Of a DNA stretch of 64,000 nucleotides, positions 7,698-39,449 are shown one piece after another. The stretch spans positions 386,557-450,556 of the forward strand of contig CATOSZ010000003.1 in assembly GCA_951812805.1 (NCBI GenBank), in the 5' to 3' direction. The first letter of the stretch is position 1, and the number at the start of each line of letters is the position of its first letter. This DNA comes from an uncultured Alphaproteobacteria bacterium. Lineage in GTDB: Bacteria > Pseudomonadota > Alphaproteobacteria > GCA-2731375. The notes under the pieces were generated by a model. That model was not told the DNA's origin. It saw nothing but the letters and a program-made list of their open reading frames with translations, and made no database searches. The position numbers were made by a program, and so were the translations under genes.

Positions 7698-10187
7698 ATG
7701 ACACTTGCTGCCGTCCGGGCCTATGACACTTTGGTGCTCAACCATCCCAAGGCGGTCCTCGTCGCGCTGCTCGCCATTCTGGTTTTCTTCGGATATCACG
7801 CAAAGGACTTCAAACTAGACGCATCGGCCGACTCCCTGTTGTTGGAAGACGATGCGGACCTCAAGCTCTACCGCGCCATCAACGAGCGCTACCCGAGCGG
7901 CGATTTGCTGATCGTAACGTTTACGCCGGACGAAGACCTGTTTTTCGACCACGCGTTGAATTCACTGAAGCAGCTCCGCAAGGAGCTCGGAACCGTCGCC
8001 AGCGTCGACAGGATGCTGACGATATTGGACGCCCCGCTGTTGAAACTGTCGGGCAAACCATTGTCGGAAGTCGCCAATCATATTTCAAGCCTGGAGGAAC
8101 CCGGTATCGATCGGGACAAGGCCAGGGACGAACTGCTGGCGAGCCCAGTGTTCCAGGACCTCATCATAAGCAAAGATGGCAAAACCACCACGCTGCTTTT
8201 GAGTTTGACGGAGAATACGCGGTTCAACGAGCTGCTCCGAACCCGTAACAAGCTGCGTTCGAAAAGCCGAAGCGCCGGCCTTACGGCCGAAGAGGCGAAA
8301 CAACTGGCAAGTGTCACTGCCGAATACGATCAAGTCCAGGAAGAGATAAGCGCGGAGCGCCACCTCGACATTGCGAGGATCAGGTCCATCATCGAGCCCT
8401 ACCGCCAGCATGGCGTCCTGTATCTCGGCGGTGTGCCGATGATTACGGACGACATGGTGACGTTCGTGCGCAACGATCTGATCGTCTTCGGTAGCATTGT
8501 CCTGTTGTTCCTCATTGCCGTTCTCACGGCGATCTTTCGGGAACTGCGCTGGATCGTTCTTCCCCTGCTCAACTGCTTCTACGCTGGCGTGGTTATGGTC
8601 GGCGTTCTGGGATTGATCGGCTGGAAGGTCACCGTCATTTCATCGAACTTTCTCGCCCTCATGCTGATCATCACCATCTCGATGAGTATTCATCTGATCG
8701 TGCGTTATCGGCAGCTGAGCCGTGATTATCCCGATGACGATCAATTGGCGCTGGTGAGGGCCACCACGCACAAGATGGCGAAGCCATGTTTCTACACGGC
8801 ACTGACGACCATCATGGGCTTCAGCTCCCTCGTCGTCAGCGACATCAAACCGGTCATCGACTTCGGCTGGATGATGAGCGCCGGCTTGACGATAACGTTC
8901 GTTACCTCGTTCGTACTGTTTCCTGCCCTGCTGATCGCAATGGGGAAATCCGGATCCAGGCCTACGCTCGAAAGCGATCGGTTTCTGCCTCCCGAATACC
9001 TGGCCCGTCTCACGGGACAACATGGCAACAAGATCCTGGCATTGGCAATTATCCTGGCCATTGTCAGTGCGGTGGGAATTTCCCGGCTGCGCGTCGAGAA
9101 CAGTTTCATAAATTACTTCAGCAGCGACACGGAAATTTATCAGGGTCTCAAGCTCATCGACGAGAAACTCGGGGGCACCACACCGCTGGAGATCGTGATC
9201 AAATTCGAGGATCCCCTGGCCGCCGTGCTGAAACCCGAGGATCTGGAAGGGCTGAGCGAGGAAGAGAAGGAAATGGAGCGCGAGTATGCGGAGGCAATCG
9301 CGAACTCACCGGAATATTGGTTTACGGCGAGTAAGATCCAACGCATCAAGGACGTGCACGACTATCTCGATCGTCTTCCCGAAATCGGCAAGGTGCTTTC
9401 ATTCGCGTCACCTGTACGCATCGCCGAAGACCTGGCCGAGGGTGAATTGGATGGTATCGAATTGGCCGTCCTCTATACTAAAATCCCGCCCGAAGTCCGA
9501 AAACACCTGGTCGAGCCTTATGTGTCCATTGATCACAACGAGGCGCGGGTCGTCGTCCGCATCGTCGATTCGAGACCGGGTTTGCGCCGCAAGGCGTTGC
9601 TGGAAAGGATACGACACGATCTGGTCGGGAAACTCGGGTTCGAGGAGCCGGACGTAACCGTCAGTGGGCTTCTGGTCCTCTACAATAATATGCTGCAGAG
9701 CCTGTTCACGTCGCAGATCAAAACCCTGGGCGTGGTCATGCTGGGTATTGCCATCATGTTCCTGGTGCTGTTCCGCTCGATCAAATTGTCGGTTATCGGA
9801 ATTCTACCAAATCTGCTGGGAGCCGCGGTCGTTTTGGGCGTGATGGGATGGGCGAATATTCCCATGGACATGATGACCATAACGATCGCCGCCATTACCA
9901 TCGGCATCGCGGTCGATAATGGCATCCATTACATTTACCGCTTCCGGGAGGAATATGCGAATAACGGTGACTATCTCGAGACTTTGCATGTTTGCCACGC
10001 CAATATCGGCAAAGCGGTATTCTATACGACCATGACCATCATCTTCGGCTTCTCCATCCTGGTATTCTCCAACTTCATACCCACGATCTATTTCGGCGTT
10101 CTGATCGCGGCGGCAATGTTTATTGCCCTTCTGGCAGCCCTCACGGTGCTGCCAAAGCTGATCCTGCTGTGGAAACCATTCGGCTGA
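7698..10187 (+). CDS. MMPL/RND-superfamily exporter (COG1033, HpnN-like), 12-TM with two large periplasmic loops
   Basis: ~830 aa with duplicated 6-TM blocks separated by soluble loops. Its GC is visibly lower (~55%) than its neighbours. Confidence 0.8.
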   Translation: MTLAAVRAYDTLVLNHPKAVLVALLAILVFFGYHAKDFKLDASADSLLLEDDADLKLYRAINERYPSGDLLIVTFTPDEDLFFDHALNSLKQLRKELGTVASVDRMLTILDAPLLKLSGKPLSEVANHISSLEEPGIDRDKARDELLASPVFQDLIISKDGKTTTLLLSLTENTRFNELLRTRNKLRSKSRSAGLTAEEAKQLASVTAEYDQVQEEISAERHLDIARIRSIIEPYRQHGVLYLGGVPMITDDMVTFVRNDLIVFGSIVLLFLIAVLTAIFRELRWIVLPLLNCFYAGVVMVGVLGLIGWKVTVISSNFLALMLIITISMSIHLIVRYRQLSRDYPDDDQLALVRATTHKMAKPCFYTALTTIMGFSSLVVSDIKPVIDFGWMMSAGLTITFVTSFVLFPALLIAMGKSGSRPTLESDRFLPPEYLARLTGQHGNKILALAIILAIVSAVGISRLRVENSFINYFSSDTEIYQGLKLIDEKLGGTTPLEIVIKFEDPLAAVLKPEDLEGLSEEEKEMEREYAEAIANSPEYWFTASKIQRIKDVHDYLDRLPEIGKVLSFASPVRIAEDLAEGELDGIELAVLYTKIPPEVRKHLVEPYVSIDHNEARVVVRIVDSRPGLRRKALLERIRHDLVGKLGFEEPDVTVSGLLVLYNNMLQSLFTSQIKTLGVVMLGIAIMFLVLFRSIKLSVIGILPNLLGAAVVLGVMGWANIPMDMMTITIAAITIGIAVDNGIHYIYRFREEYANNGDYLETLHVCHANIGKAVFYTTMTIIFGFSILVFSNFIPTIYFGVLIAAAMFIALLAALTVLPKLILLWKPFG

Positions 10188-22477: not shown

Positions 22478-22535
22478 CTCAGGCTTTGGGCACGTCGTAA
22501 CGGTTCAGGAGATCGTCGACGATGCCGTCGAGTTC
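22478..22535. repeat. direct repeat copy 1 (~57 bp; core 48 bp with 1 mismatch) = 3' tail plus stop of HpaB-like gene
   Basis: Core gggcacgtcgtaacggttcaggag[a/g]tcgtcgacgatgccgtcgagttc is shared with 25047-25094. Flanks differ on both sides. Confidence 0.7.
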
Positions 22536-22667
22536 GCCCCACAGCTCGGCCCGGTGCGCCTTCATGCGGGCGAGCGTGCCGGCTTCGTCCGCCTGCATCA
22601 GGCGCGAGTAACCGACGACGTCGGCGGCGAGCACGGCCGCGAGCCCGCGTTCAATGGCCTCGGACAT
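22479..22667 (-). pseudogene. chimeric remnant: first ~45 codons of a second class III adenylate cyclase fused to the 3' tail of an HpaB-like gene
   Basis: The N-terminus LAAVLAADVVGYSRLMQADEAGTLARMKAHRAELW parallels the N-terminus of the 20448 cyclase. The C-terminus ELDGIVDDLLNRYDVPKA* is the same tail as the 25038-25481 fragment, and is part of the direct repeat. Confidence 0.5.
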
Positions 22668-23835: not shown

Positions 23836-25059
23836 GTGCTTCGTGCGTCTGCTGCGTTATCCGCGCAACTGGCTCCCCCCGCGTGGACGGAAACACTGGT
23901 CACCACGGCACTCGCGGTGGGCACGGTCGTCCATGTCGGACTGTCGTCGGACGGCATCGACGCCGCCGCCGCCACTCTCGTGGCAATTTTCATCATCGGG
24001 CTCTTCTATGTCGTCGCCGCGCCGGCGATTGCCTTCCGGCCGACGTCGCGATCAATGGAATTTCTGGCCCGCCACGCCGACCACGCCGGGCTTTGGATGT
24101 CGCTTCCGGCCCTCGTCGCTTGTGGGCTGGTTTGGAACCCGAAGATGCTGGCCGTCCTGCTCACGGCCATGGCGATCGAATTGGCCTGGTACGTCAGGCG
24201 ACGTCGGGCTGGCGGTCGACGGTCGCTCTATCGCCTCGACGATCACGATCTCGCCGTCCTGAAGCGGCAGGCGGGAGGTAATCTCGCCGTATTCGGAAAG
24301 CGTCACGGCATCCGCGAGCTGGAGATAAATGCAAACGCCGACGCCTGGCGCGGATGCACCAAGGAATCCGCACCGTGTCCCTTCAATCTCTACGTCAACC
24401 GTCTCGGTCTCAATACCGCGCCCTGTTGCCGCGAACACCTGGCGGAACTTTGTCGTTACGTCGCGTCCCAGCTCTCGGAATTGAACTTCGTATACTGGCT
24501 GGACGGGGGAACCTTGCTGGGGGCGGTCCGGGAGGACGGATCGCTTTTGAAATGGGAGGACGACGTCGATCTTTCCGTCCTGCTGCAAGACGATGCGTCC
24601 TGGGATCGGCTGGTCGCCGAACTGGGCGCCTGCTGTCAGCGGGACGGCTTTTCCTGCGACGTCTTTGCCAAAGAAGGTTACCTCACGATCTCCTACGACC
24701 CGCCGCAAGCATGGCCGCTGCTCTACGAGCGCTACAGGATGAGGGGCGAGATCCGCCTCGATCTCTTCGTCTATCGGGAGGCGGACAGCCGCGGCTCGGC
24801 GGTGGTCGAGCGGCGGCACTACAAGGCGTCGATGCCCGAGACCGAAAGTGGTGGCTATGGCGTGGCGCGCGACATCGTGCTGCCGACCTCGACGATCACT
24901 TTCCTCGGCGAAGAGTACTCCTGTCCCGGTCGACCGGTTGCCTATCTCGAACAGCTCTACGGTGACTTTCGGAAGGTGGAGTATTCCTATGTCGACGACT
25001 CGGCCGCCCAAACCCGCCGATCCTTGGATGTCGAAGATCAGGCCTCGGGCACGTCGTAA
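23836..25059 (+). CDS. LicD-family (phosphocholine/phospho-sugar transferase, fukutin-like) protein with N-terminal membrane region; probably frameshifted near its 5' end
   Basis: LicD signature YWLDGGTLLGAVREDGSLLKWEDDVDLSV. The upstream frame (from ~23711) encodes a TM segment and joins this frame at a C6 homopolymer tract (~23866-23872). Low-GC islet. Confidence 0.6.
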   Translation: MLRASAALSAQLAPPAWTETLVTTALAVGTVVHVGLSSDGIDAAAATLVAIFIIGLFYVVAAPAIAFRPTSRSMEFLARHADHAGLWMSLPALVACGLVWNPKMLAVLLTAMAIELAWYVRRRRAGGRRSLYRLDDHDLAVLKRQAGGNLAVFGKRHGIRELEINANADAWRGCTKESAPCPFNLYVNRLGLNTAPCCREHLAELCRYVASQLSELNFVYWLDGGTLLGAVREDGSLLKWEDDVDLSVLLQDDASWDRLVAELGACCQRDGFSCDVFAKEGYLTISYDPPQAWPLLYERYRMRGEIRLDLFVYREADSRGSAVVERRHYKASMPETESGGYGVARDIVLPTSTITFLGEEYSCPGRPVAYLEQLYGDFRKVEYSYVDDSAAQTRRSLDVEDQASGTS

Positions 25060-25094
25060 CGGTTCAGGAGGTCGTCGACGATGCCGTCGAGTTC
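25038..25094. repeat. direct repeat copy 2 (native 3' end of HpaB-like fragment)
   Basis: See copy 1. Confidence 0.7.
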
Positions 25095-25481
25095 ATCCCA
25101 CGGCGCCTCGCGGAAGCTGTGGCCGCGCACGATGAAGGGGGCGCCCGCATAGAATTTCTCATAGCTCTGATGGCGGCCGGCGAATTCGGAGCCGAAGAGA
25201 TCCCAGGCCAGGCGGAGCAGTTTCATGCGGGAGACGGCATCCATCTGCGGGGTTTGCCAGTAGGTCTCGAAGCGCTCGCGCAACGCCGGTTCCTGCAGAA
25301 CACTGACGTCCGCCGGCATCTGGAAGACGCCGCCACCGCAGAGCTCGCGCAGGATGTCGATGATGCCCGCGTGGTTCTCGGTACACCAATTGAGCGCCGC
25401 ATACATCATGCGCCGATTGAACGTGAGGTGGCCTTCGGGCCAGCTCTCCGCGGTGTGAATCGGCATGCAAAACTGACCCAC
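25038..25481 (-). pseudogene. C-terminal ~147 aa fragment of an HpaB-like (4-hydroxyphenylacetate 3-monooxygenase oxygenase component family) gene, 5'-truncated by an IS21-family insertion
   Basis: Only the C-terminal portion is present. The frame opens immediately inside the left end of the IS21 element. Confidence 0.5.
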
Positions 25482-26423: not shown

Positions 26424-27977
26424 TTATCGGTAGTAGCCGGGGCCGCGGATGTTGGTGTGTGGCGGCAGCGGCAGAAGCGGTTCGCGCTCGGGGCGTGTGC
26501 GATCGAGGCCGGACTTGAGGATGGCGGCGAGCGATGAGTAGCTGGTCGTGTTGATGGTGAGCGCGCGTGCGCAGGCGGCCTCGACGCGTTCCGGTTCGTA
26601 TCGGCGGGCGAGCGACAAGACGCCCATGGCGCTGCGATAGCCTTGCTCGGGATGGGGCCGATCGCGGATCATCCGCTCGACCAGGAGGGCGGCGTTGGGG
26701 CCGATGCGGCTGGCCTGGTCGATCAGGCTTTGTGGCGTTCGCTCGGCATAGCGCTGGTGCGCCTTGGGCATGTGGGCCGGGATCGTGGCATGGCCGCCAT
26801 GCGGTGAGCGGCGGAGATGGCTGGCGACGCGCTTGTGGTTGTGGAAGATCTCGACCGTGCGGTGAGTGAGCCGGACTTGGACCTTGCGGCCGATCAGGCC
26901 GTGCGGCACGGAGTAGAAGCTGCGCTCGACGTCGACGTGATAGTCGGAATGGACCTTGGCGGTCTTCCATTCGGCATATTCGAAGGGCGTCGTCGGCAGG
27001 GGTGCCAGGGCCTCGCGCTCGATGGCCTCGAACATCTGGCGCCGGCTCTTTCCAAGGTTGCGCATGGGCCGCTCGTTGAGCTCCTCGAGGAGGTCGCGGA
27101 TCGCCCGGTTGAGCTGGTCGAGGGAGAAGAAGCGCGTATTGCGCAGTCTTGCCAGGATCCAGCGCTCGACGACCTGGACGGCGACTTCGACCTTGGCCTT
27201 GTCGCGCGGCTTGCGGACCCGGGTCGGCAGGACGGTGGTGTCGTAGTGCTCGGCGAGCGCGGCGAAGGTCGGGTTGAGGGTCGGCTCGAACCAGAGCGGC
27301 TTGGCGACGCCGGCCTTGAGGTTATCGCAGACGATGCTCTTGGGCACGCCGCCGAAGTAGGCGAGCGCCCGGCATTGTCCGGCGACCCAGTCGGGCAGGC
27401 GCTGGGTCAGGCTGGCGGTGGCGAAGGTGAGCGAGGAAGCGCCCAGCACGGCGACGAAGATCTGCGCGTCGTGCACCTCGCCGGTCTCGGGGTCGACGAT
27501 GTCCACCGTCTGGCCGGCATAATCGGTCTGCATGACCGCACCGGCCTCGTGGCGGTTGCGCCAGGTGGCGCCGGTGCGCCGCTTGAACGCCGTGAAGGCT
27601 TCGCAGAACCAGGTGTAGCCGTAGCCATCGGGATGTGAGGCGCGGTATTCCTGCCAGAGCAGGGTCAGCGTCACCCCCTTGCGCTTCAGCTCGGCCGCGA
27701 CCGTCGGCCAGTGCGGCTCGCACCTGTCGCGCGGGGGCCGGCCCATGCGGCGGAACAGCGTCTCTTGCAGGACCGCGTCGTCCTCGTATTCCGCCGGCAG
27801 CGGCCAGGCGGTAAGGCCGACCTCGCGGGCCCGCAGCAAATAGGTCGACACTGTCGTCTTGGAGACCTTCAGCCGTTCCGCCACCTCTCGCGCCGAGAGG
27901 CCTTGGTCATGCGTCAGCCGCAGGATCGTTCGTGCATCTCTCACCGTCGTTCGTCTCGTCTGCTTCCGTCTGGGCAT
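26424..27977 (-). CDS. istA: IS21-family transposase IstA
   Basis: N-terminal HTH ([21 protein letters not shown]) plus DDE integrase core; ~517 aa. Confidence 0.85.
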
Positions 27978-28200
27978 GTCCCCTCCCGGCAAAAGCCAAG
28001 AGGTAGACGCCGAGACGGCGCACCCGAAAGCTGAACTCAGATCGCCCCGTGATGCTGTCCGGGACTTTCCGGAATCACTGGCCGCGACTTACTGAAATCT
28101 CTGGCCAGGACTTTCCGTAATCGGTGTCCGGGACTTTCCGAAACGCGCAGAACGCTAGCATCCGCACGGAACAGTGCGGAGGAAAGAGCAGGTGGTATTG

Positions 28201-29700
28201 ATGGAAAGCGTATTGAAGATCCGACGTTGGATATTACGGGAGGGTCGGAGTATCCGATCTGTATCTCGTCAGACTGGTTTGTCGCGGAACACGATTAAGA
28301 AGTATCTGAAGGACGGCGATCCACCGAGCTATCAGCGGCGCGTTTCACCCGTCCGGCGTAAGCTTAGCGATGGCTTCGCCAGCCGGCTTCGGGCGCTCTT
28401 TGAGCAGGACCTGGGGCGCCCGCGCCGTGAGCGCCGGACGGCCAAGAAGCTTTATGAGCAGCTTGTGTCGGAAGGCTATAGCGGATCCTACTCGACGGTT
28501 CAGAGGTTTGTCCGCGACCTGAAGCGTTCTGGCGCCGGATCGGGGGATGCGTTCATTCCGTTGCACTTTACGGCAGGTGACGCGCTCCAGTTTGACTGGA
28601 GCACGGAATACGCTGTCCTGGGCGGTGTCGAGCAGAAGGTAAAGGTTGCCCACTTCCGCCTATGTCATAGCCGCAAGCCCTTTGTTGTTGCCTATCCCAG
28701 CGAATCTCAGGAGATGGTGCTGGACGCCTTTGCACGGGCGATGTCTTTCTATGGCGGCGTACCGCGCCGGGTGATCATCGACAACCCCAAGACGATGGTA
28801 ACCTATGTTTCGCGCTCTAAGGACCGTGTGTTCCATCCGCGCTTTCTGGCGTTGATGAACCACTATGTGATGGAACCGGTTGCTTGCACACCCGCGGCGG
28901 GGTGGGAGAAGGGTCAGATTGAGAACCAGGTTGGGTTCCTGCGGGGACAGCTGTTTGCGCCCAAGCCCGCCTTTGACGATCTGGATGCGCTGAACGGCTG
29001 GTTGCGTCTGCGCTGCGAGGAATTGGCGAATCGCGCCCACCCCGAACAATCGGATCGCAAGATCTCGGACGTGTTCGCAGACGAGTGCGCCGAACTGCGT
29101 CCCCTGGGCCGGGCTTTTGACGGCTATGTTGAGAAGGCCGCTCGTGTCCGCTCTACCTGTCTGGTCCAATATGCCACCAATCGCTATAGCGTCCCCTCCC
29201 GGTTCGCCGGGGAGCTTGTCTCTCTGCGCGCCTATGCGGACCGGATCGTGGTTGTGTCAGGGCAGAATGTGATTGCCGAGCACAAGCGCCGCTTTACCCG
29301 CAACGCCAGCTATTTCGAGCCCTGGCATTACCTGCCCCTACTCGACCGCAAGCCCGGCGCGCTGAGAGATGGCGCGCCCTTTGTGGGTTGGCAATTGCCT
29401 GAGGCGATGCACCGGGTCAGGGCGCATTACATGGCCGGCAAAGGCGGGGACCGGGAGTTTGTCGATCTGCTCCTGCTGGCCCAGGATCACGGGATCGAGG
29501 TGGTCGAGATAGCCTGTGAACTGGCCGTGGAGCAGAACACGCTGCGCCTTCCGGCCATCATCAATCTGATCAACCAACTGGTGGAGCCGGTCATCGCGCC
29601 ATGGGGCGAGAGCCACGCCTATCCGCAACTGACCTTGCGGCCCGAAGCGGACTGCAAGCGCTATGAGACGCTGTGCGTTGCCGGGGAGGCCGTCGCATGA
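28201..29700 (+). CDS. istA: IS21-family transposase IstA (copy 2)
   Basis: Starts MESVLKIRRWILREGRSIRSVSRQTGLSRNTIKKYL (HTH) followed by a DDE core. Confidence 0.85.
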   Translation: MESVLKIRRWILREGRSIRSVSRQTGLSRNTIKKYLKDGDPPSYQRRVSPVRRKLSDGFASRLRALFEQDLGRPRRERRTAKKLYEQLVSEGYSGSYSTVQRFVRDLKRSGAGSGDAFIPLHFTAGDALQFDWSTEYAVLGGVEQKVKVAHFRLCHSRKPFVVAYPSESQEMVLDAFARAMSFYGGVPRRVIIDNPKTMVTYVSRSKDRVFHPRFLALMNHYVMEPVACTPAAGWEKGQIENQVGFLRGQLFAPKPAFDDLDALNGWLRLRCEELANRAHPEQSDRKISDVFADECAELRPLGRAFDGYVEKAARVRSTCLVQYATNRYSVPSRFAGELVSLRAYADRIVVVSGQNVIAEHKRRFTRNASYFEPWHYLPLLDRKPGALRDGAPFVGWQLPEAMHRVRAHYMAGKGGDREFVDLLLLAQDHGIEVVEIACELAVEQNTLRLPAIINLINQLVEPVIAPWGESHAYPQLTLRPEADCKRYETLCVAGEAVA

Positions 29701-29916
29701 AAGCTTTGATAGACCAACTGATCGCCCTGAGGCTGTATGGAATGGCGGCTTGCGCCGAAGCTTTGCTGGCCGCGCGCAAGCCGCCAAGTCTGACCACTGC
29801 GATAAAGCAACTGATCGACGCCGAGACTGTAGAGCGCCGGGTGCGCTCTATCCAGCACCAAATGCGGGCCTCGAAGTTCCCCCACCATAAGGACTTCGCC
29901 ACTTTCGATTACGGCC
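29697..29916 (+). pseudogene. istB: istB (copy 2) N-terminal fragment, interrupted by IS1182 insertion
   Basis: MKALIDQLIALRLYGMAA...DFATFDYGLAA. The reading frame resumes at 31467 after the 1.55-kb insertion. Confidence 0.7.
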
Positions 29917-31466
29917 TAGCAGCCTGTCGGACTCGGGCATGCAAGGATTGGTAAGATTGGCTTGGCGGGCGTCGATGTCATGGATTTACCCCCATGAAGT
30001 TGCGAACGCGGGTTGGCCCGCCCGTTCAGGCGTGGCTGAGGACGAACATCCGCTTGATGTTCCAGGAGAGCGTGGCCAAGGTCCATTCCCCCTTCGCCTT
30101 GTCGAGGCCGCGCAGGCTGAACTGACGCAAGCCCATCACCGATTTGATGATGCCGAACACCGGCTCCGGCGTCTGCTTGCGAAGCGCGTAGAGCGCCCGG
30201 CCCTCGGGTGTGGCCAGGCGATGGCACATCGCCTCGAGCGGCGTCGGATCCTCGGGCGCTGGCGGCGCCTCGGCGAAGCGGTCCCGCCAGGAAAGATGGT
30301 GGTGCTCCCGGCCGAGCGCGATCAGCGGCGCGATCTCCGCTTCCCCGCAGGCCTCGACGTTGGCCTGGCTGAAGTAGCCGCTGTCCGCCAACAGGGTCTC
30401 GACCTCGCCAAGCCCGTCCGGCAGGCCGGCGAGTGCTTCGAGCGTCGGTTCGATCTGCTGCTTGTCGTTCGCCGCCTGCACCACGTCGGCGCTGACCACC
30501 AGCAGGCTGCCGGCGGCCACCGCAGCCTGGGCGTTGTAGCACTGCTCGAAGCCGCCGCCGGCCACCGGCATGATGCGCGAGTCCGGGTCCGTCAGGTTGA
30601 CCTGGTCCTTCGCCCGTGGCCCCGGCTCCGGCGGCTTCGGTGGCCGCCCGCCCGGCTTGCGGCCGGTCCGCGTTTCCTTCGCCTCGCGGGCTGCCAGCTT
30701 CTCTTCGTACTCCGCCTGCTCCCGCGCATGACGCTCGGCCGCCCGCGCCTCGATCTCCGCCTTCGCCGCGGCGATCGCCGCCAGCCGGTCCTCGCGCCGT
30801 GCCAGCTCCTCCGGCACGCTCATGCCGTCGGGAACCTCGGACCGGTCCGCCGCTTCCGCCAACGCCATCAACTCCGCCACCTCGGCCCGCAGCCGGGCTT
30901 CGATCTCGCCCGCACGCTGCCACGACAGGGCGCTGTGCCGGCTCGCGTCGGCATGGATCTTCGTCCCGTCCAGCGCCACCGTGCCCAGTTGCAGCATGCC
31001 GGCCTGCCGCGCCAGCAGCAGAACCTGCACGAACAGCCCCTCGATCAGCGGCAGGAAGCGACGGCGGAACGTGGCGATCGTGTCGTGGTCGGGGTGGTCG
31101 TTTGCCGCGATGAAGCGGAAGGCCACCGAATCATAGCTCGCCCGCTCCAGCTTCCGGCTGGAATGCACCCCCGTCGCGTAGCCGTAGATCAGCAGGCCCA
31201 GCAGGACGCTCGGGTGATGCGCCGCCGAGCCCGAACCACGATAGGCCTTCACGAACGCAGAGAGATCCAGCTGCTCCAGCACATCGACCACGAAGCGCGC
31301 CAGATGACGATCAGGCAGCCATTCGTCCACCGAAGGCGGCAGAAGATAGCTGGTCTCCCGGTCAACCTGTCGAAAGTTGCTCATCACAAAATCACCGCGC
31401 AGGAGAGAATCAGACCGTGACAGTGAATCTCATCTCGAAACTCGGCTCAAGTCCGACAGGCTGCTA
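29917..31466. mobile_element. IS1182-family (IS5 superfamily) insertion sequence, copy A, ~1.55 kb, flanked by TAG (CTAG) target duplication
   Basis: Sequence-identical to 36155-37705. Terminal inverted repeats cagcctgtcggact...agtccgacaggctg. Inserted at a ctag inside istB. Confidence 0.8.
30026..31387 (-). CDS. IS1182-family transposase (453 aa)
   Basis: InsH-like N-terminal domain, central coiled-coil/charged linker, DDE_Tnp_1-type C-terminus. Confidence 0.85.
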
Positions 31467-31976
31467 GCCGCCGTCACCCAAGCGCAAATCGACCCCTTCT
31501 GCTCAGGGCAGTTCACCCAGGAGGCCCACAACCTCATTCTGGTGGGCGGAACCGGTACGGGCAAAACCCACATCGCCATTGCTCTGGGGACGCTGTTGAT
31601 CAATCAGGGAAAGAAGGTCCGTTTCTTCAACGCCGTCGATCTGATCAATGCGCTGATCAAGGAACAGGCCGAAGGCAACGCCGGCAAGATCATCCGGCAA
31701 CTGACGGCCATGGATTGCGTCATCATCGACGAACTGGGCTATATCCCATTCCCCAAATCCGGCGGTGCGCTCTTGTTCCACCTGATCAGCAAACTCTATG
31801 AGAAGACCAGCGTCATCATCACCACCAATCTGGAGTTCGGGGAATGGGTCTCCGTCTTCGGAGATGCAAAAATGACAACCGCGTTGCTGGATCGTGTAAC
31901 GCATCACTGCGCAATCATCGAAACAGGCAACATGTCTTACCGCTTCGCACAAAGCAAACAGCGACGACAAAAGTAG
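31467..31976 (+). pseudogene. istB: istB (copy 2) C-terminal fragment
   Basis: Walker [14 protein letters not shown]; continues the 29697 frame across the IS1182 insertion. Confidence 0.7.
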
Positions 31977-32039: not shown

Positions 32040-32391
32040 ATCGCAAAGGCGGGCAAATCAAAACGGGTCCTGTACAGATTGTTCTGCAAAAGGGGTTTCG
32101 TAGCTGGGGCACAAGTCCGGGCCGATGGGGTGGATGAGCTGCCTCCGGCTGGTCCGGGCTCTCGCGATCGAAATCCATGAGGACTGGCTGGATGCCAACC
32201 GCTAGCTCAACATGATCCATCTCAAGGAGAGCAAAAGCGAACGCATCCAGAAAGCCGCCTGACGGCGGCTCGGCATGCCTGGCGCTCCGAGCAATCGAAA
32301 TCTCCGCGCCAGGCATGCCGGTGGCCCTCATCGGCAGCCATGACAAACTTGCAGAACAGTCTGGACACTACTTCAAAAGCTCATTGCCACT

Positions 32392-34248
32392 TCAAGAACC
32401 CCACCTGATCCCCACGTTCCGCCGCCGGCCCGGTTGTCCCGGTGGGCCCACAGGCCCCTCCCACGCGGCTTCGCTCCGCGTAACGCAAAGCGCTACACGA
32501 AGCCGCGCGGGGCCCTCCCGTGGACTACCGGGACAACCTCCGTCGAAGCAAGGGGGGGGGTCAATTTTGCACGCCGATAGGGGGTCAGAATTAAATGCTG
32601 ATTGACACCCGGGCCGGTCGCTGGCCAGGATGTCGTCGTCCGCCGGCAGCACGCTGCGCATCCAGGCGAGGCCGGCGGCATACCAGGTCGGCGAGACCAC
32701 CGCATCGGCCCAGGATTTGCGCCGATGGAGAACGTCCTCCGGCAGCACCCCCTTCATCGATTCCCGCAGCAGCAACTTGCCTGGGCGCAGCCGGCCCGCC
32801 CGGCTCCAGGGGTTGGGGCGCGGCCGGATCGGCAGGTAGGAGGGCGGCAGGGCTTCGGCGAAATGGGCGGGCGAGACGCGCTCGACGCCGATCTCGCGCA
32901 GGACCTTCTCCCAACGGGTCACGTCGATGCAGGAGACCAGGCGGGCGAAGCTCTGATGGCGAAGGTGCGCCGCCAGCTCCATCCGGGCGAAGCCCGACGG
33001 CGCTTCGGCAATGTGCCCGCCCTCGCCCAACAGCGGCGCCATGTCGGCCGGGAAGTGGGTCCGCAAATCCGCGATGGCGCCGCGCTCGCGCAGGACCGAC
33101 AGGACCAGCAGCAGCAAACGAGGATAGAGCGGCTCCAGGCTCGGGTGCACCCGGCGCAGCCGGTGCAGATGGCGCCCGCGTCGGGTGCGCGCCCGCCAGG
33201 CGAGCGCGGTGACCAGCGCCACGCCGCCCGGCCGGGCCAGCAGGCGGGCCAGGTCCTCGAGATGGGCCATGTGACTGCCGATGCCGAAGCCGGAGAGATA
33301 ACGGGTGAAGCCATGCCGCAGGATCCGCCGGCTCGCCGGCAGCATGAAGGCCTTCGGCCAATGGGTCGGGCTTTCGGCCCGCCATACCGTTTCCGGCAGC
33401 GCCTGCAGATAGTCCTCGAAGGAGATCTTGAAGACGTGGTGGCGGATACCGAGACGCCGGGCGACCGCGACGGCGAACGGCGTCTCGCAGGGGTGGCTCG
33501 GGTCGTCGAACTCGTAGGTGAAGGCCTCGACGTTGGCGGCGCCGACGCAATCGACCGCATGGGCGGCGATGGCGGAGGAATCGATGCCGCCCGACAGGGT
33601 GACGGCGACCGGGCGCGCCGGCCCGATTGCCCGTTCCACCGCGTGGCCGAGGCGATGGCGATAGTCCCGCGCCAGCGTGGCGAGATCGCCCGCCGGCGGC
33701 TCCAGCAGGCCAGGCCAGTGCCAGCGGGGCGCTTCGACCTCGCGTCCAAGCGTCAGGGTATGGCCGGGCGGCACCTCCTCGATACCCTCAATCAACGTGC
33801 CGGTGCCGGCCATGGTGAGGCCGGCGACGACGGTCTCGTCGACGGCGCTTCGACGCAACCGGCTGTCGAGGTCGGGATGCGCCAGCAGCGGGCGGAGGGA
33901 GGCGGCGAACAGCACCAGCCCCGGCAGCCGCGCGAAGTACAACCGTTCCCCCCCGGAAAGGCCGCGCAGCAGGCGCAGGCGCCGCGCCGCGAGATCGGCC
34001 CGCGCGAGCACGAAATGCCCCTCGGGCGGAGACTCGCCGACGAGCAGGCCCTCGTGCGCCTGGACGCCGGCCGGACCGCGCGACAGCTTGCCCCGACGGG
34101 CCACGAGCCAGAGCGGGCCCTCGGAGATCTCGGCGAGGCCTTCGGGATGGCCCGGCAGGCGGGCCAGCATGCGGGCCTCGGCCAGGGTCGAGATCCGCCG
34201 TCGCGCCGGCACGTCGTCGAGCGACCATGCCCCCAGCAGATCCGACAT
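32392..34248 (-). CDS. asparagine synthase (AsnB)-like protein lacking the N-terminal catalytic Cys; 3' end runs into an IS-terminus-like sequence
   Basis: PP-loop SGGIDSS motif and Asn-synthase C-terminal domain. Starts MSDLL, with no Cys2. The last ~60 codons cross a low-GC TGTCA-ended segment at ~32574-32600. Confidence 0.7.
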   Translation of the reverse strand: MSDLLGAWSLDDVPARRRISTLAEARMLARLPGHPEGLAEISEGPLWLVARRGKLSRGPAGVQAHEGLLVGESPPEGHFVLARADLAARRLRLLRGLSGGERLYFARLPGLVLFAASLRPLLAHPDLDSRLRRSAVDETVVAGLTMAGTGTLIEGIEEVPPGHTLTLGREVEAPRWHWPGLLEPPAGDLATLARDYRHRLGHAVERAIGPARPVAVTLSGGIDSSAIAAHAVDCVGAANVEAFTYEFDDPSHPCETPFAVAVARRLGIRHHVFKISFEDYLQALPETVWRAESPTHWPKAFMLPASRRILRHGFTRYLSGFGIGSHMAHLEDLARLLARPGGVALVTALAWRARTRRGRHLHRLRRVHPSLEPLYPRLLLLVLSVLRERGAIADLRTHFPADMAPLLGEGGHIAEAPSGFARMELAAHLRHQSFARLVSCIDVTRWEKVLREIGVERVSPAHFAEALPPSYLPIRPRPNPWSRAGRLRPGKLLLRESMKGVLPEDVLHRRKSWADAVVSPTWYAAGLAWMRSVLPADDDILASDRPGCQSAFNSDPLSACKIDPPPCFDGGCPGSPREGPARLRVALCVTRSEAAWEGPVGPPGQPGRRRNVGIRWGS

Positions 34249-34321
34249 GATCCGGGTCCCCCAGCGCGTTCTTCCGTGCCATCATAGCAGCCGCGCCCGA
34301 AGTGACGGGAAGTGGGGGGAC

Positions 34322-35317
34322 ATGCGCTGCGTCGCTTGCGAGAAGGACACCAAGCCGGCCGGCAAGGGGCGGCCGGCGTCCAAGTGCGGCCATTGCGGGC
34401 ACCTCTTCGCCCTCAACCCCAAGGTCGACGGCATCGCCGACATGGTGGTCAAGAAACTCATCGACGGCGTCACCGCCAAGGGTGAACATCGCTACCTGCA
34501 AGCCCAGCTGGAGCATGAACTCGAAGGCCGGTTGACCAAGCGCTCCAAGGGCTTCTTCATCTTTCTGCTGGTCGCGGTGGCGGTCGCGGCCGGGGCGGCG
34601 TTCTTTCTGTTGCACGCCGTCGTCGGGCTGCTCGTCGGCGCGGCGGGCTATTTCGCGGCGTCACGCTGGCATCGCAAGCCCCGGGCGCAGAGCACGGCGA
34701 AACGGGACGAGGCGGTGCGCCTGCTGCAGCGCTACGACCAGCTGAACCCGCCGAACCAGCGGGTCGACACGGCAGCCGCCGTGCCCGCCCTCGGCCCCGA
34801 CGATGTCGTGCACGACCGGGTTCTGGTCTGCCAGCGCCCGGATCACGCCGCCTTCTACCGGGAAAACGGCTTCGCGCTGACCGCCGCCTGCCATGTCGCC
34901 TGTCCGGCCGATCCCGCCGCGTCACGCGAGGCGCTGGTCGCCGCCGTCCGGACCCGCACGGCACCGGGCGTCTTCCTGGTGCACGATCTGACGCCGGCCG
35001 GCCTGGCCTTCGCCGAGGCCCTGACCGCCGACCCCGAATGGTTCGCCGACCACCCGGGCGCCCGCCGTGTCGACCTCGGCCTCACGACGGCTCATGGCGA
35101 AGCGTTGAGTGACCTCGCCCGTCCGCTTGCCAGCGACGAGGGCACCGGCGCAATCGCCGGCCTGCCGGAGGGTACGGGCCTGCGGTTGACGCTGTTTCGC
35201 CCGAAGGTCCTGCTGGAATTGACACGCAAGGCCATGGAGGACGAGGCCGCCTTCGTGCTGCCGAGCAAACGGGACGGCGCCGGTGCCGCCTTGGCGATGA
35301 CGGGCGATGCGGAATGA
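34322..35317 (+). CDS. hypothetical membrane protein with N-terminal CxxC...CxxC zinc-ribbon
   Basis: MRCVACEKD...CGHCGH then two TM helices and a ~200-aa C-terminal domain. GGAAGTGGGGGGA RBS. Divergent from the asnB-like gene with only 73 bp between them. Confidence 0.5.
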   Translation: MRCVACEKDTKPAGKGRPASKCGHCGHLFALNPKVDGIADMVVKKLIDGVTAKGEHRYLQAQLEHELEGRLTKRSKGFFIFLLVAVAVAAGAAFFLLHAVVGLLVGAAGYFAASRWHRKPRAQSTAKRDEAVRLLQRYDQLNPPNQRVDTAAAVPALGPDDVVHDRVLVCQRPDHAAFYRENGFALTAACHVACPADPAASREALVAAVRTRTAPGVFLVHDLTPAGLAFAEALTADPEWFADHPGARRVDLGLTTAHGEALSDLARPLASDEGTGAIAGLPEGTGLRLTLFRPKVLLELTRKAMEDEAAFVLPSKRDGAGAALAMTGDAE

Positions 35318-35863: not shown

Positions 35864-36157
35864 ATGCGAATGATGCTGAGGTGGAGCGTACCGGTGGAGC
35901 GCGGCAACGAGGCGATCGCCGACGGCACGATGGGCCGGGTGATCGGCGAGCTGATGGAGAAGCTGAAGCCGGAGGCCGCCTACTTCTGGCCGGAGCAGGG
36001 CGAGCGGGCCGGCATGATGGTTTTCGACATGGCGGGCTCCGTCGACATCCCCGCCGTCGCCGAGCCGCTGTTCGTGAATCTCGACGCCGATGTCGAGTTC
36101 AATCCCGTGATGAATGCCGAAGATCTGCAGAAGGCGCTCGCCAACCTTCCCGACTAG
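35864..36157 (+). CDS. hypothetical small protein (97 aa)
   Basis: GGGAGGGA RBS and good GC3 bias. Its TAG stop coincides with the IS1182 copy-B insertion site. Confidence 0.45.
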   Translation: MRMMLRWSVPVERGNEAIADGTMGRVIGELMEKLKPEAAYFWPEQGERAGMMVFDMAGSVDIPAVAEPLFVNLDADVEFNPVMNAEDLQKALANLPD

Positions 36158-37705
36158 CAGCCTGTCGGACTCGGGCATGCAAGGATTGGTAAGATTGGCT
36201 TGGCGGGCGTCGATGTCATGGATTTACCCCCATGAAGTTGCGAACGCGGGTTGGCCCGCCCGTTCAGGCGTGGCTGAGGACGAACATCCGCTTGATGTTC
36301 CAGGAGAGCGTGGCCAAGGTCCATTCCCCCTTCGCCTTGTCGAGGCCGCGCAGGCTGAACTGACGCAAGCCCATCACCGATTTGATGATGCCGAACACCG
36401 GCTCCGGCGTCTGCTTGCGAAGCGCGTAGAGCGCCCGGCCCTCGGGTGTGGCCAGGCGATGGCACATCGCCTCGAGCGGCGTCGGATCCTCGGGCGCTGG
36501 CGGCGCCTCGGCGAAGCGGTCCCGCCAGGAAAGATGGTGGTGCTCCCGGCCGAGCGCGATCAGCGGCGCGATCTCCGCTTCCCCGCAGGCCTCGACGTTG
36601 GCCTGGCTGAAGTAGCCGCTGTCCGCCAACAGGGTCTCGACCTCGCCAAGCCCGTCCGGCAGGCCGGCGAGTGCTTCGAGCGTCGGTTCGATCTGCTGCT
36701 TGTCGTTCGCCGCCTGCACCACGTCGGCGCTGACCACCAGCAGGCTGCCGGCGGCCACCGCAGCCTGGGCGTTGTAGCACTGCTCGAAGCCGCCGCCGGC
36801 CACCGGCATGATGCGCGAGTCCGGGTCCGTCAGGTTGACCTGGTCCTTCGCCCGTGGCCCCGGCTCCGGCGGCTTCGGTGGCCGCCCGCCCGGCTTGCGG
36901 CCGGTCCGCGTTTCCTTCGCCTCGCGGGCTGCCAGCTTCTCTTCGTACTCCGCCTGCTCCCGCGCATGACGCTCGGCCGCCCGCGCCTCGATCTCCGCCT
37001 TCGCCGCGGCGATCGCCGCCAGCCGGTCCTCGCGCCGTGCCAGCTCCTCCGGCACGCTCATGCCGTCGGGAACCTCGGACCGGTCCGCCGCTTCCGCCAA
37101 CGCCATCAACTCCGCCACCTCGGCCCGCAGCCGGGCTTCGATCTCGCCCGCACGCTGCCACGACAGGGCGCTGTGCCGGCTCGCGTCGGCATGGATCTTC
37201 GTCCCGTCCAGCGCCACCGTGCCCAGTTGCAGCATGCCGGCCTGCCGCGCCAGCAGCAGAACCTGCACGAACAGCCCCTCGATCAGCGGCAGGAAGCGAC
37301 GGCGGAACGTGGCGATCGTGTCGTGGTCGGGGTGGTCGTTTGCCGCGATGAAGCGGAAGGCCACCGAATCATAGCTCGCCCGCTCCAGCTTCCGGCTGGA
37401 ATGCACCCCCGTCGCGTAGCCGTAGATCAGCAGGCCCAGCAGGACGCTCGGGTGATGCGCCGCCGAGCCCGAACCACGATAGGCCTTCACGAACGCAGAG
37501 AGATCCAGCTGCTCCAGCACATCGACCACGAAGCGCGCCAGATGACGATCAGGCAGCCATTCGTCCACCGAAGGCGGCAGAAGATAGCTGGTCTCCCGGT
37601 CAACCTGTCGAAAGTTGCTCATCACAAAATCACCGCGCAGGAGAGAATCAGACCGTGACAGTGAATCTCATCTCGAAACTCGGCTCAAGTCCGACAGGCT
37701 GCTAG
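36155..37705. mobile_element. IS1182-family insertion sequence, copy B (identical to copy A, same orientation)
   Basis: Flanked by TAG on both sides; the identity of the ORFs and nucleotide lines is visible directly. Confidence 0.8.
36264..37625 (-). CDS. IS1182-family transposase (copy B)
   Basis: Identical 453-aa protein. Confidence 0.85.
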   Translation of the reverse strand: MMSNFRQVDRETSYLLPPSVDEWLPDRHLARFVVDVLEQLDLSAFVKAYRGSGSAAHHPSVLLGLLIYGYATGVHSSRKLERASYDSVAFRFIAANDHPDHDTIATFRRRFLPLIEGLFVQVLLLARQAGMLQLGTVALDGTKIHADASRHSALSWQRAGEIEARLRAEVAELMALAEAADRSEVPDGMSVPEELARREDRLAAIAAAKAEIEARAAERHAREQAEYEEKLAAREAKETRTGRKPGGRPPKPPEPGPRAKDQVNLTDPDSRIMPVAGGGFEQCYNAQAAVAAGSLLVVSADVVQAANDKQQIEPTLEALAGLPDGLGEVETLLADSGYFSQANVEACGEAEIAPLIALGREHHHLSWRDRFAEAPPAPEDPTPLEAMCHRLATPEGRALYALRKQTPEPVFGIIKSVMGLRQFSLRGLDKAKGEWTLATLSWNIKRMFVLSHA

Positions 37706-37970
37706 TCCGCATTTCTCACACTATCCACGGCCTCAGCGGCGCTGTGGGCCCGACAGGGAAGGAGCGCTGCGCCGTTCGATGTGGTTCATCGTACAAGCAG
37801 TGCGACGCACCCTGTCGGGCCCACAGCGCCGCCCGAAGGGTCTATCTGGGCCGGCCGCTCGGCGAGATGCGGTCCCTCGACGTAGCCCCGCTACGCTTTT
37901 GGGCCCGCACCTCGCCGAATCGACTCGGCCCAGATAGACTGAGGCCATGGATAGTGTGAGAAATGCGGAC
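37706..37970. mobile_element. MITE-like 265-bp element with 31-bp terminal inverted repeats and nested internal palindromes, flanked by TAG
   Basis: The TIR tccgcatttctcacactatccacggcctcag pairs with ctgaggccatggatagtgtgagaaatgcgga (30/31). Internal perfect 23-bp IR gcggcgctgtgggcccgacaggg / ccctgtcgggcccacagcgccgc, and a further IR gtctatctgggccg / cggcccagatagac. Confidence 0.55.
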
Positions 37971-38123
37971 TAGGCGCGACCGACCGCGGCAAAAACACAG
38001 CCCCGTGACTTGACGGCGTGGGGCGGGGAGGCCAACAAGGGCGTCCCGCCCCGGGCGCCGTGGTCACCTGCGCCCACCCGACCCGGCGCTTACCGCCACC
38101 GCCCCGCAACCGGAGCCGTCCCC

Positions 38124-39449
38124 ATGGGTCTCGACGTCGCGATCTGGATGTTTCCGGCCCTGCTGGTGATGATCTTCCTCGGCTTTCCCGTCGCCTTCTG
38201 CCTGATCGGGACCGCCTTCCTGTTCGGCCTGCTGCGCTGGCCGCCGGAATCCCTGGCCTTCATCCTGGTCACCAAGGTGCACGACGTTTCCGGCGCGCAT
38301 GTGCTGGCGGCGATCCCGCTGTTCGTCTTCATGGGCGCGATGCTGGAACGCTCGGGCATCGCGGCGAAGCTGTTCGACGCCATTCACCTGTGGACCCGGC
38401 GGCTGCCCGGCGGCCTCGCCGTCGGCACCATCCTGATGTGCGTGGTCTTCGCCGCGGCGAGCGGCGTGCTCGGCGCGACCGAGTCCGTGGTCGGTATCCT
38501 GGCGATCCCGCCGATGCTGAAATACGCCTACGACAAGGGATTGATCAGCGGCACGATCTGCGCCGGCGGCTCGCTCGGCACGATCATCCCGCCGTCCATC
38601 CTGGTCGTCCTGCTGGGCCCCGTCGCCAGCGTCTCGATCGGCGATTTGTTCATCGGCATGATGATCCCGGGCCTGATGATCGCCGGCCTCTACATCCTCT
38701 ATATCCTGGTGCTTTGCTCGATCCGGCCGCGGCTCGGCCCGCGCCTGCCGCGCAGCGTCGAGGAGCCCCCGTTCTGGCGCAAGATCGTGATCTCGCTGAC
38801 CGCCCTGGTCCCGCCCGTGCTGCTGGTGGTGACGGTGCTGGGTTCGATCATGATCGGGGCGGCGACGCCGACGGAGGCGGCGGCGATGGGGGCGGCGGGA
38901 ACCATCGTGCTCACGCTCGCCTACGGCAACTTCAGCTTTCGGGCGATGTGGCAGGCCCTGGTCCGCACGCTGCTGGTCTCCTCGATGATCATGATGATCT
39001 ACATGGGCGGATTGATGTTCTCCGGCATCTTCATCGCCGCGGGCGGCATGAACCTGATCACGGACATGATGAACGCGACCGGCCTCACCGCCTGGTCGAC
39101 GCTCTTCGTCATCCTGATCCTGGCCTTCGTCGCCGGCTTCGTGCTCGACATGATCTCGATCATCCTGATCTTCGTGCCGATCTCCATCTCGCTGATGCAC
39201 AAGTTCGGCTTCGATCCGGTCTGGTTCTCGATCCTTTTCCTGATCGTCATCCAGACCAGCTACCTGACGCCGCCGATGGCGCCGGCGATTTTCTACCTGC
39301 GCGGCATCAGCCCGCCCGAGATCACCCTGCGCGACATGTACCGCGGCGTGATCCCCTTCATCGGCCTGGAGATCGTCGCGATCGGCCTGGTCATGGCCTT
39401 CCCGGGCCTGGCGCTGTGGCTGCCCTCGAAGGTTCTCGGCTTCAACTAG
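38124..39449 (+). CDS. dctM: TRAP transporter large permease DctM (orphan; no dctP/dctQ upstream)
   Basis: 441 aa with the typical DctM 12-TM layout. Upstream 150 bp abuts the MITE/IS. Confidence 0.8.
   Translation: MGLDVAIWMFPALLVMIFLGFPVAFCLIGTAFLFGLLRWPPESLAFILVTKVHDVSGAHVLAAIPLFVFMGAMLERSGIAAKLFDAIHLWTRRLPGGLAVGTILMCVVFAAASGVLGATESVVGILAIPPMLKYAYDKGLISGTICAGGSLGTIIPPSILVVLLGPVASVSIGDLFIGMMIPGLMIAGLYILYILVLCSIRPRLGPRLPRSVEEPPFWRKIVISLTALVPPVLLVVTVLGSIMIGAATPTEAAAMGAAGTIVLTLAYGNFSFRAMWQALVRTLLVSSMIMMIYMGGLMFSGIFIAAGGMNLITDMMNATGLTAWSTLFVILILAFVAGFVLDMISIILIFVPISISLMHKFGFDPVWFSILFLIVIQTSYLTPPMAPAIFYLRGISPPEITLRDMYRGVIPFIGLEIVAIGLVMAFPGLALWLPSKVLGFN

Follow-up and report, generated by a model that had tools for sequence, protein, structure and literature searches.

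We describe here a gene related to asparagine synthetase (AsnB) that lies on the reverse strand at 32392-34248 of a 64,000-nt stretch of DNA from an uncultured alphaproteobacterium (contig CATOSZ010000003.1 of assembly GCA_951812805.1; hereafter "the window"). On balance, we think it probable that this gene is a 3'-truncated copy of a member of an uncharacterised AsnB subfamily, whose products would adenylate carboxylates and form a module with a membrane protein encoded by the divergent neighbouring gene (hereafter "the partner"), and that the copy was damaged by an element of the IS21 family. By itself, the window copy is a casualty of insertion sequence (IS) activity and of limited interest. 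However, it exposes a widespread two-gene module, in which a ligase devoid of the glutaminase nucleophile as well as of the catalytic Glu of AsnB is accompanied by a membrane protein whose best-conserved short element is formed by its last four residues. The pairing of an AsnB-fold ligase with a tail-bearing membrane protein appears to be undescribed in Pfam, NCBIfam, PADLOC and the literature searched, and literature searches aimed at the module of AsnB-like protein and partner returned no description of it.

An earlier note on this DNA had pointed to an AsnB-like protein that keeps the SGGIDSS motif, starts with MSDLLGAW and lacks the catalytic Cys2, and these statements are borne out by the open reading frame (ORF), the Pfam match, the motif itself and the upstream frame. 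Codon-position GC content of the ORF is 0.75/0.55/0.85, the third-position value matching that of neighbouring genes, a pattern typical of real genes in a window with 68% GC. The Pfam Asn_synthase model matches residues 196-529 (E=2.7e-27; 96.8 bits, cut-off 21), with weaker matches to the PP-loop relatives NAD_synthase and QueC. Could a Cys-containing start have been overlooked further upstream? The stop-to-stop frame (32395-34281) extends 11 codons beyond the ATG, none of which is a start codon, and homologues share the M[S/T]xLLGAW start in the family alignment; there is thus no hidden Met-Cys start.

Judged by sequence similarity, the protein belongs to a sharply separate, uncharacterised subfamily of the AsnB superfamily. 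A database search returns about 100 clusters of proteins of ~600 aa that are 40-76% identical to the query over 86-91% of its length (E from 1e-270 to 1e-48); beyond these, scores fall to E~1e-20 for ordinary AsnB proteins, which cover 33-40% of the length. Among 104 family members, SGG[IVL]DS is found in 99 (SGGIDSS being invariant in a 13-member alignment), GFG[IV]GSH in 96, RPGK in 95 and SC[IV]DVTR in 81, and the GEG[AS]DE motif of AsnB occurs in none. Cys is never seen at position 2, where most members have Ser or Thr; MPD and MA starts occur too, and the hhGxW that follows is near-invariant in family N-termini. A Ser or Thr after the initiator Met, at the site of the nucleophilic Cys of AsnB, might conceivably act as an N-terminal nucleophile. 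In hmmsearch profile alignments the family's G-F-G falls on G-E348-G of AsnB (1ct9) and on G-Y348-G of BLS (1jgt), and the Lys of RPGK falls on the Lys449 region of AsnB. The elements for ATP binding and adenylation, namely the PP-loop and this Lys, are thus retained. So are the counterparts of AsnB D384 and R387 (Asp and Arg), residues that bind the amino-acid substrate. An AlphaFold2 (AF2) model of the window protein (pLDDT 82, pTM 0.87) is confident at residues 1-550 and has the two-domain AsnB fold, with full-length Foldseek matches to TsnB9, BLS, AsnB, human ASNS and CarA. We infer that the protein is an ATP-dependent, carboxylate-adenylating enzyme of the AsnB fold and not an asparagine synthetase, with an N-domain that would be unable to hydrolyse glutamine and an active site that would differ from those of AsnB and BLS. 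In short, a familiar superfamily gains a new and divergent variant with this enzyme.

Two more familiar functions have to be weighed against this. First, the gene might encode an ordinary asparagine synthetase that uses ammonia, or some other amidotransferase with a housekeeping role, in line with its Pfam domain and with asn_synth_AEB (TIGR01536) being its best NCBIfam match by E-value. This is hardly credible: the match scores 108.9 bits where the model demands 267.1, the asparagine synthetase model PRK09431 gives 40.6 bits against a cut-off of 499, Cys2 is missing, Glu348 is replaced by Phe, GEG[AS]DE is nowhere found in the family, and true AsnB proteins are matched only distantly and over part of the length, as described above. 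Neither of the two observations that the earlier note had named as contrary to its reading turned up: by its TIGR01536 score the protein does not group with bona fide AsnB, and there is no upstream Cys-containing start. Second, that note had read the missing Cys as the mark of a lasso peptide or other macrolactam (isopeptide-forming) cyclase whose cluster has been lost. In favour of this, lasso C proteins too are AsnB homologues that lack the Cys and keep the PP-loop, and the models NF033535 and NF033561 give weak, partial matches. In the hidden Markov model comparison that the note had proposed, Asn_synthase was matched, but the lasso peptide cyclase (NF033535) and the albusnodin/ikarugamycin macrolactam cyclase (NF033561) models gave 43.1 bits against a cut-off of 525 and 59.5 against 300, and the XrtA/PEP-CTERM (TIGR03108) and NAGGN (TIGR03104) amidotransferase models gave 70.9 against 816.9 and 68.5 against 570.1; all curated NCBIfam models for AsnB, lasso or macrolactam cyclases and amidotransferases thus stay well under cut-off. 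Nor does the neighbourhood help: no transglutaminase-like B protein (the protease of such clusters), PqqD-like RiPP recognition element or ABC exporter is present among the genes scanned within ~20 kb or in the ~19 homologous loci. A search for a precursor gene near the AsnB-like gene and in those homologous loci found none, where ORFs under ~70 aa were not systematically screened outside the conserved core; within the core there is no room for a small precursor ORF because the intergenic gaps measure 73 bp and 7 bp. Moreover, the native neighbourhood is kept on one side of the gene and holds other conserved partners. We therefore give the cyclase reading very little credit.

Where, then, does the gene end? 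Homology to the 13 aligned family members stops after ...ILASDRPG, that is, at residue 547 (codon 32608-32610). Relatives run on for ~50 residues with conserved W-E-P-x-S-P-Q, F-W-x-R and P-P-x-W motifs, in place of which the window protein carries 71 unrelated codons (548-618). Accordingly, all four elements of the family signature (M[S/T]xhhGxW, GFG[IV]GSH, SC[IV]DVTR and RPGK) are present in the window protein, and the signature's C-terminal ~50 residues are missing from it beyond residue 547. The first unrelated codon, TGT (32605-32607), is the opening triplet of a terminal TGTCAATCAGC... and begins TGTCAATCAGCATTTAATTCTGACC, which occurs once in the window (the terminal 25-mer is unique). 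Read on the forward strand, 32391-32607 has blastn matches in two annotated IS21-like elements, those of Azospirillum sp. TSA2s and Sphingobium sp. TKS, where the matching DNA is non-coding and follows closely after istB. In a three-way alignment, the right ends from the window, Azospirillum and Sphingobium share the terminus ...GATTGACA and then diverge; all of them terminate in ...G(A/G)TTGACA at the same nucleotide, which in the window is 32607. These alignments indicate that an IS21-family element took the place of the last ~50 conserved codons of the AsnB-like gene. The earlier note had assigned the last ~60 codons to a low-GC, TGTCA-terminated segment derived from the terminus of a mobile element. 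The origin stands, in that an IS21 right end replaces the native 3' end, and so does the low GC content for the first ~62 nt (0.52); the length has to be revised to 71 codons, and the remainder of the tail is not GC-poor at all (0.71).

A tblastn search with six homologue C-termini found no match to the missing ~50 codons in the window. Synteny with L001 and L002, the loci of the two closest relatives, runs from dctM through the DUF3303, CBS and partner genes to the AsnB-like gene and breaks at 32593-32620, and the genes that follow downstream in L001 and L002 were not found in the window. Because the missing codons are absent elsewhere in the window and synteny stops at the junction, it was an IS21-associated rearrangement, rather than a simple insertion, that removed the native 3' end together with the downstream genes. 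The lost ~50 residues are conserved in both branches of the AsnB-like family (alignment), and of the 84 members with a length of at least 580 aa, 65 have P[PS]xW among their last 45 residues. By contrast, the replacement tail encoded by the IS is predicted to be disordered, with AF2 pLDDT values below 50 at residues 555-576 and 597-618. We consider it quite likely that the window copy has been inactivated and is a non-functional or crippled remnant whose frame stays open by chance read-through; the partner and CBS genes at the locus are intact. Note that a database search finds the identical 618-aa protein, called on a 2.4-Mb contig, in public collections, where the chimeric ORF has been deposited as an ordinary protein, a warning for annotation.

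The element responsible can be assigned to IS21 by its istA-istB pair in the usual order and by a right end finishing CA-3' (...TTGACA at 32607). The 3' part of istB (31472-31976) corresponds to positions 75-237 of the IstB_IS21 profile, and istB is 82-85% identical at the nucleotide level to istB of Ruegeria and Phaeobacter. Two features are odd for the family. The ~630 bp between the istB stop (31976) and the right end (32607) are unusually long, and the right end and its vicinity yielded no inverted counterpart of the left-end repeat TGTCCGGGACTTTCCG. Because of this gap and the missing repeat, the right arm may be a fusion of two IS21 fragments. A second IS21-type istA (522 aa, 26424-27992) lies on the opposite strand directly to the left of this element, and between the two istA genes (28056-28140) there are three direct copies of TG(T/G)CC(G/A)GGACTTTCCG, a repeat that does not recur in inverted form near the right end.

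The locus has been visited by other elements as well. Two IS1182/IS5-like copies of 1557 bp (Pfam DDE_Tnp_1_6, DUF772 and DDE_Tnp_1), 99.9% identical, in direct orientation and both with inverted ends CAGCCTGTCGGACT, bracket the AsnB-like, partner and CBS genes. We considered whether they form a composite transposon that carries the module, and rejected the idea: CTAG flanks are present separately around either copy, and copy 1 has landed within istB, so that independent insertions are the simpler reading. L001 and L002 have no counterpart of copy 2 in the syntenic block, and the intact partner and CBS genes, taken together with a near-identical second copy, suggest recent IS activity.

The earlier note had also regarded the gene as orphaned. 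This cannot be upheld, given that the divergent gene at 34322-35317 is a conserved companion. The partner adjoins members of the AsnB-like family in nine non-redundant loci; it is seen in the window, L001-L005, L092, L094, L096 and L097, divergently in L001, L002 and L003 and co-directionally in L004/5, L092, L094 and L096/97, and neighbour clustering places the CBS-pair gene beside the partner in eight loci. In L001 and L002 the module is embedded in ordinary chromosomal synteny; the window partner is 49-51% identical to the partners there, and the window DctM shares 83-90% amino-acid identity with its orthologues. The association also holds when approached from the other side, with all six contexts picked via the partner alone (L101, L102, L103, L104, L107 and L108) holding an adjacent AsnB-family gene. 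Of 77 loci that were fetched via generic AsnB genes, a single one, L089 (Candidatus Competibacter), encodes a homologue of the partner, immediately upstream of AsnB. Note that a contig scan with the full-length alignment was swamped by generic PP-loop matches and yielded family members only in L011-L013, the rest serving as control loci. On the strength of this shared gene order, the AsnB-like gene, the partner and usually the CBS gene form a conserved module.

Many partner operons are richer than the one in the window and hold two AsnB-type ligases plus a pyridoxal phosphate (PLP)-dependent decarboxylase. One of them, L103, lies on plasmid Cy782202 of Gloeothece verrucosa PCC 7822 (NC_014534.1, 319329-325359) and comprises a Cys-less AsnB-like gene ("asparagine synthetase B family protein"), a PLP decarboxylase of the ornithine/diaminopimelate/arginine (Orn/DAP/Arg) type ("decarboxylase"), the partner (hypothetical, ending ...VQSFG) and a second, convergent AsnB gene ("asparagine synthase-related protein"), the protein set being WP_041934270.1, WP_013335014.1, WP_013335013.1 and WP_013335012.1; as an annotated isolate genome with the module it offers a handy experimental entry point. 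In the metagenomic loci L104-106, L107 and L108/109 an AsnB-like gene A1, the partner and an AsnB-like gene A2 follow each other with overlapping stops and starts, joined in L104 by a decarboxylase. On the short contigs L101 and L102 the ORF fragments that flank the partner are AsnB C-termini. The A1 and A2 paralogues make up two orthologous groups, and the window's family is a third, more divergent one.

What kind of protein is the partner? Its N-terminus carries a CxxC...CxxC Zn ribbon followed by a two-helix hydrophobic hairpin, with transmembrane helices at 77-97 and 99-116 in a low-confidence AF2 model (pLDDT 41, from a five-sequence alignment). A domain of ~200 aa with the motifs ...LVC(E/Q)R..., ...NAC.V... 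and VF(V/L)VHDLTPxG comes next, and an acidic, Gly-rich linker leads to the end, ...TGDAE. Zn ribbon and even number of transmembrane helices in the low-confidence model lead us to infer that the two soluble parts and the tail face the cytoplasm; a cytoplasmic tail would therefore be accessible to the soluble AsnB-like enzyme. Neither Pfam nor NCBIfam has a match to the window partner, and its profile retrieves from the PDB only noise at the level of the Zn ribbon. Word-indexed searches gave 3-6 proteins; the family was therefore counted with an exhaustive profile search (E<=1e-3), which returned 717 representative clusters. One partner from a close relative (P0126, 86% identical) is called as a 134-aa middle fragment on a 2.26-Mb contig, and the module may be damaged in that genome too.

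Partner relatives match, weakly and in the same place, the Toprim domain of Top6A/Spo11 (PF21180; P0173 4e-5, P0164 3e-4, P0215 0.014). This similarity, the IS-rich surroundings and the position of the Gloeothece copy on a plasmid near a protelomerase would fit a conflict or defence module, with the membrane-bound Toprim-like partner as nuclease effector and the AsnB-like protein as maker or sensor of a nucleotide-derived signal. We regard this as improbable. The window partner has CQ where others have CE or CD on the Glu-bearing strand, and HD in place of DxD, so that the catalytic residues of Toprim are not conserved; a PADLOC scan returned a generic PP-loop (QueC) match alone; and L001 and L002 have the module within ordinary chromosomal synteny.

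The most conserved short motif of the partner is its extreme C-terminus. Of 153 representatives, 121 (79%) end in Gly and 22 in Glu; Phe stands at -2 in 101, Ser at -3 in 77 and Asp at -4 in 96. The consensus is GGDSFG-COOH, in the window clade D[S/A]E-COOH, and both stand behind a low-complexity linker. Tail type tracks enzyme subfamily, E-tails accompanying the window family and FG-tails the A1/A2 paralogues.

How might enzyme and tail be connected? Imagine that the AsnB-like enzyme binds the partner at its extreme C-terminus (...D[S/A]E in the window clade and ...DSFG in the majority of relatives), activates the final carboxylate of this tail by adenylation and then hands it on to an amine. 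The partner would then be a membrane-anchored carrier or substrate, following the logic of LysW and LysX with a ligase of the AsnB type. We put this forward tentatively because a tail of this sort is suited to entering an active site, because the adjacent enzyme activates carboxylates yet cannot make its own ammonia, because tail type co-varies with ligase clade, and because, in a sister branch of the family, the place of the partner is taken by an unrelated protein whose tail is similar. That the enzyme of the window's family would adenylate the partner tail and pass it to an amine is a possibility we hold with clearly less than even confidence. The general form of the idea, in which the partner family of 717 clusters would consist of membrane-anchored carriers or substrates with their C-termini amide-linked to an amine by dedicated Cys-less AsnB-type ligases, is slightly more doubtful still.

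The sister branch, which we call type-B, is found without the partner in loci L006, L008, L011, L012, L091, L093 and L095, which, going by record titles or by the source names of family members, belong to Planctomycetota, Myxococcota, "Deltaproteobacteria" and an uncultured Enterobacterales metagenome-assembled genome (MAG). Five of these seven loci encode a membrane protein, X, that has a cytosolic domain in all cases and a lipoprotein-like N-terminal domain in three, and whose tail ends in GGG or AL[A/S]E. Homology between X and the partner was considered and dismissed (hhalign probability 1%). All seven type-B loci also encode, on the opposite strand, a nucleotidyltransferase-like protein, Y, of ~230 aa with the N-terminal motif YxFGS...G...LLVLVD; its N-terminus gives non-significant matches (E about 1) to aminoglycoside adenylyltransferases. 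Neither X nor Y has a match in Pfam or NCBIfam. A different setting is seen in an Elusimicrobia-type MAG (GCA_016194745.1, L009 3427-13227), where three AsnB-like paralogues sit with a HemN-like radical SAM protein, a PALP enzyme and an ABC exporter in what looks like a biosynthetic cluster, unlike the partner and type-B contexts.

Type-B loci bear directly on the most serious alternative, namely that the enzyme is a small-molecule amide synthetase which adenylates a free carboxylate, perhaps one imported by a TRAP or ABC system, and amidates it with ammonia or another amine, while the partner anchors or regulates it and the tail docks as a pseudo-substrate. All solved relatives (AsnB, BLS, CarA and TsnB9) act on small molecules, and the Asp and Arg aligned with D384 and R387 are retained. 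The syntenic block includes dctM, a DctP-like gene is present in all seven type-B loci with NMT1-type ABC permease and ATPase genes near in most, and FG-clade operons hold an MFS gene in addition to the Orn/DAP/Arg-type decarboxylase. However, linkage to dctM is limited to three closely related genomes, and this scenario leaves unexplained why the extreme C-terminus should be the most conserved short motif of the partner and why a non-homologous protein in type-B loci should have a similar tail. We rate its chances as real but well short of even.

Several observations caution against reading the tail as a substrate, or the window copy as dead. The proposal is built on gene context and motif conservation, and the sample of contexts is small (15 loci, six of them selected without bias). 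The partner might just as well serve as a membrane scaffold or regulator whose tail merely docks on the enzyme, and the consistent type-B linkage to solute-binding genes of the DctP-like and NMT1 ABC kinds would suit a small-molecule substrate. The AF2 model of the partner, at pLDDT 41, is unusable, and the Toprim call is weak, with a best score of 24.1 bits that equals the cut-off and with acidic Toprim residues that are not conserved in the window clade. Finally, the truncated AsnB-like protein might keep some activity, because E. coli AsnB has a disordered C-terminus of ~40 residues.

Table 1. Features of the AsnB-like locus and its surroundings (positions in the window).
Feature	Position	Strand	Evidence or remark
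IS21-family istA, 499 aa	28201-29700	+	Pfam rve and Mu-transpos_C_2; 43% identity to Azospirillum IstA
IS21-family istB, split by IS1182-like copy 1	29699-31976	+	Pfam IstB_IS21 2.8e-58
IS1182/IS5-like element copy 1, transposase 30026-31387	29916-31471	-	CTAG flanks; within istB
Right-end segment of IS21-family element	32391-32607	+	Ends ...GCTGATTGACA at 32607; blastn and three-way alignment
AsnB-like ORF	32392-34248	-	618 aa, ATG start, Asn_synthase domain
Read-through tail, codons 548-618 and TGA stop (32392-32394)	32392-32607	-	IS DNA, no family homology
Native part of AsnB-like gene, residues 1-547	32608-34248	-	Degenerate N-terminal nucleophile (Ntn)-type N-domain and PP-loop synthetase domain
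Motif GFGIGSH, residues 320-326, at the place of AsnB GEG(S/A)DE	33271-33291	-	Profile alignments
PP-loop SGGIDSS, residues 219-225	33574-33594	-	ATP pyrophosphatase signature; sequence reading
Divergent intergenic region AsnB-like/partner, 73 bp	34249-34321	.	Coordinates
Partner gene, 331 aa, divergent neighbour	34322-35317	+	Zn ribbon, transmembrane hairpin, Toprim-like domain, acidic tail
CBS-pair protein, 169 aa	35325-35834	-	Pfam CBS 4.7e-25
DUF3303-like gene, 97 aa	35864-36157	+	Syntenic in L001 and L002
IS1182/IS5-like element copy 2, transposase 36264-37625	36154-37710	-	CTAG flanks; between DUF3303 gene and dctM
TRAP transporter DctM subunit	38010-39449	+	Pfam DctM 4e-67; far end of syntenic block

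Other parts of the window show irregularities of their own. A 147-aa ORF at 25038-25481 on the reverse strand matches positions 71-201 of HpaB_C (the C-terminal part of 4-hydroxyphenylacetate 3-hydroxylase) alone, and its first 64 bp are repeated with 92% identity 2.5 kb away (22479-22542 and 25038-25101); it looks like a further gene fragment at a rearrangement point. To the right of IS copy 2, the interval 37702-37973 contains inverted repeats, with 35-bp arms that are 97% identical and a self-complementary stretch of ~100 bp. GC content drops to 0.54-0.56 at 8001-10000, compared to ~0.68 elsewhere. Scans of the whole window for tRNAs and Rfam families gave no match.

How does the module compare with systems that are already understood? 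The enzyme shares with AsnB/ASNS (PF00733, TIGR01536) its two-domain fold (Foldseek E about 1e-15, TM 0.5-0.66), the SGGxDSS PP-loop, the Lys of RPGK on Lys449 and the Asp and Arg on D384 and R387, but differs in lacking the N-terminal Cys and in having GFGIGSH for GEG(S/A)DE (Glu348 to Phe), at an overall identity of ~15%. BLS (1jgt) and CarA (1q15) are likewise Cys-less proteins of this fold with a dead Ntn domain (profile E=7.5e-11, Foldseek E about 1e-16), which activate a carboxylate by adenylation and let it react with an amine that is not ammonia from glutamine; however, the catalytic Tyr348 of BLS (GYG) is Phe in the window family, no clavam or carbapenem cluster is present, and identity is ~17%. 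The best solved match is TsnB9 (7ylz), the trichostatin hydroxyamidotransferase (profile E=1.3e-17, Foldseek E=7e-20), although the match covers only the second half of the N-domain and the PP-loop region, identity is 16-17%, and TsnB9 presumably still has a working glutaminase domain. The lasso cyclase (C protein, NF033535) is likewise a Cys-less AsnB homologue, and one that adenylates a peptide carboxylate, but the candidate peptide here would be the C-terminal tail of a 330-aa membrane protein and not a leader-bearing precursor.

For the partner, the working analogy is LysW, a protein with a Zn-ribbon domain and an EDWGE tail. Both combine a Zn-ribbon globular part with an acidic, flexible C-terminal extension, the window partner starting with CxxC...CxxC and ending in ...GDAE. 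The C-terminal Glu of LysW holds the substrate after ATP-dependent loading by LysX (PMC12998189), and carrier recognition draws on both the globular part and the C-terminal extension, with pearlins/AmCP as further tail-loaded carriers (PMC9303977). Unlike LysW, the partner is membrane-bound, measures ~330 aa and includes a Toprim-like domain, and most of its relatives end in Gly (DSFG) rather than Glu. The chemistry would differ too, with an acyl-adenylate ligase of the AsnB type here as opposed to the ATP-grasp enzyme LysX and the LanB-like PEARL. If the tail is the substrate, the module would give a role to hundreds of genes annotated as "asparagine synthase-related" and "hypothetical", and acyl-adenylate chemistry would be seen, in a manner so far undescribed, to modify the C-terminus of a protein or to assemble a metabolite on it. 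In parallel to LysW/LysX and the pearlins, PP-loop enzymes of the AsnB type would then make up a third class of C-terminus ligases, after ATP-grasp LysX/RimK and the LanB-like PEARLs.

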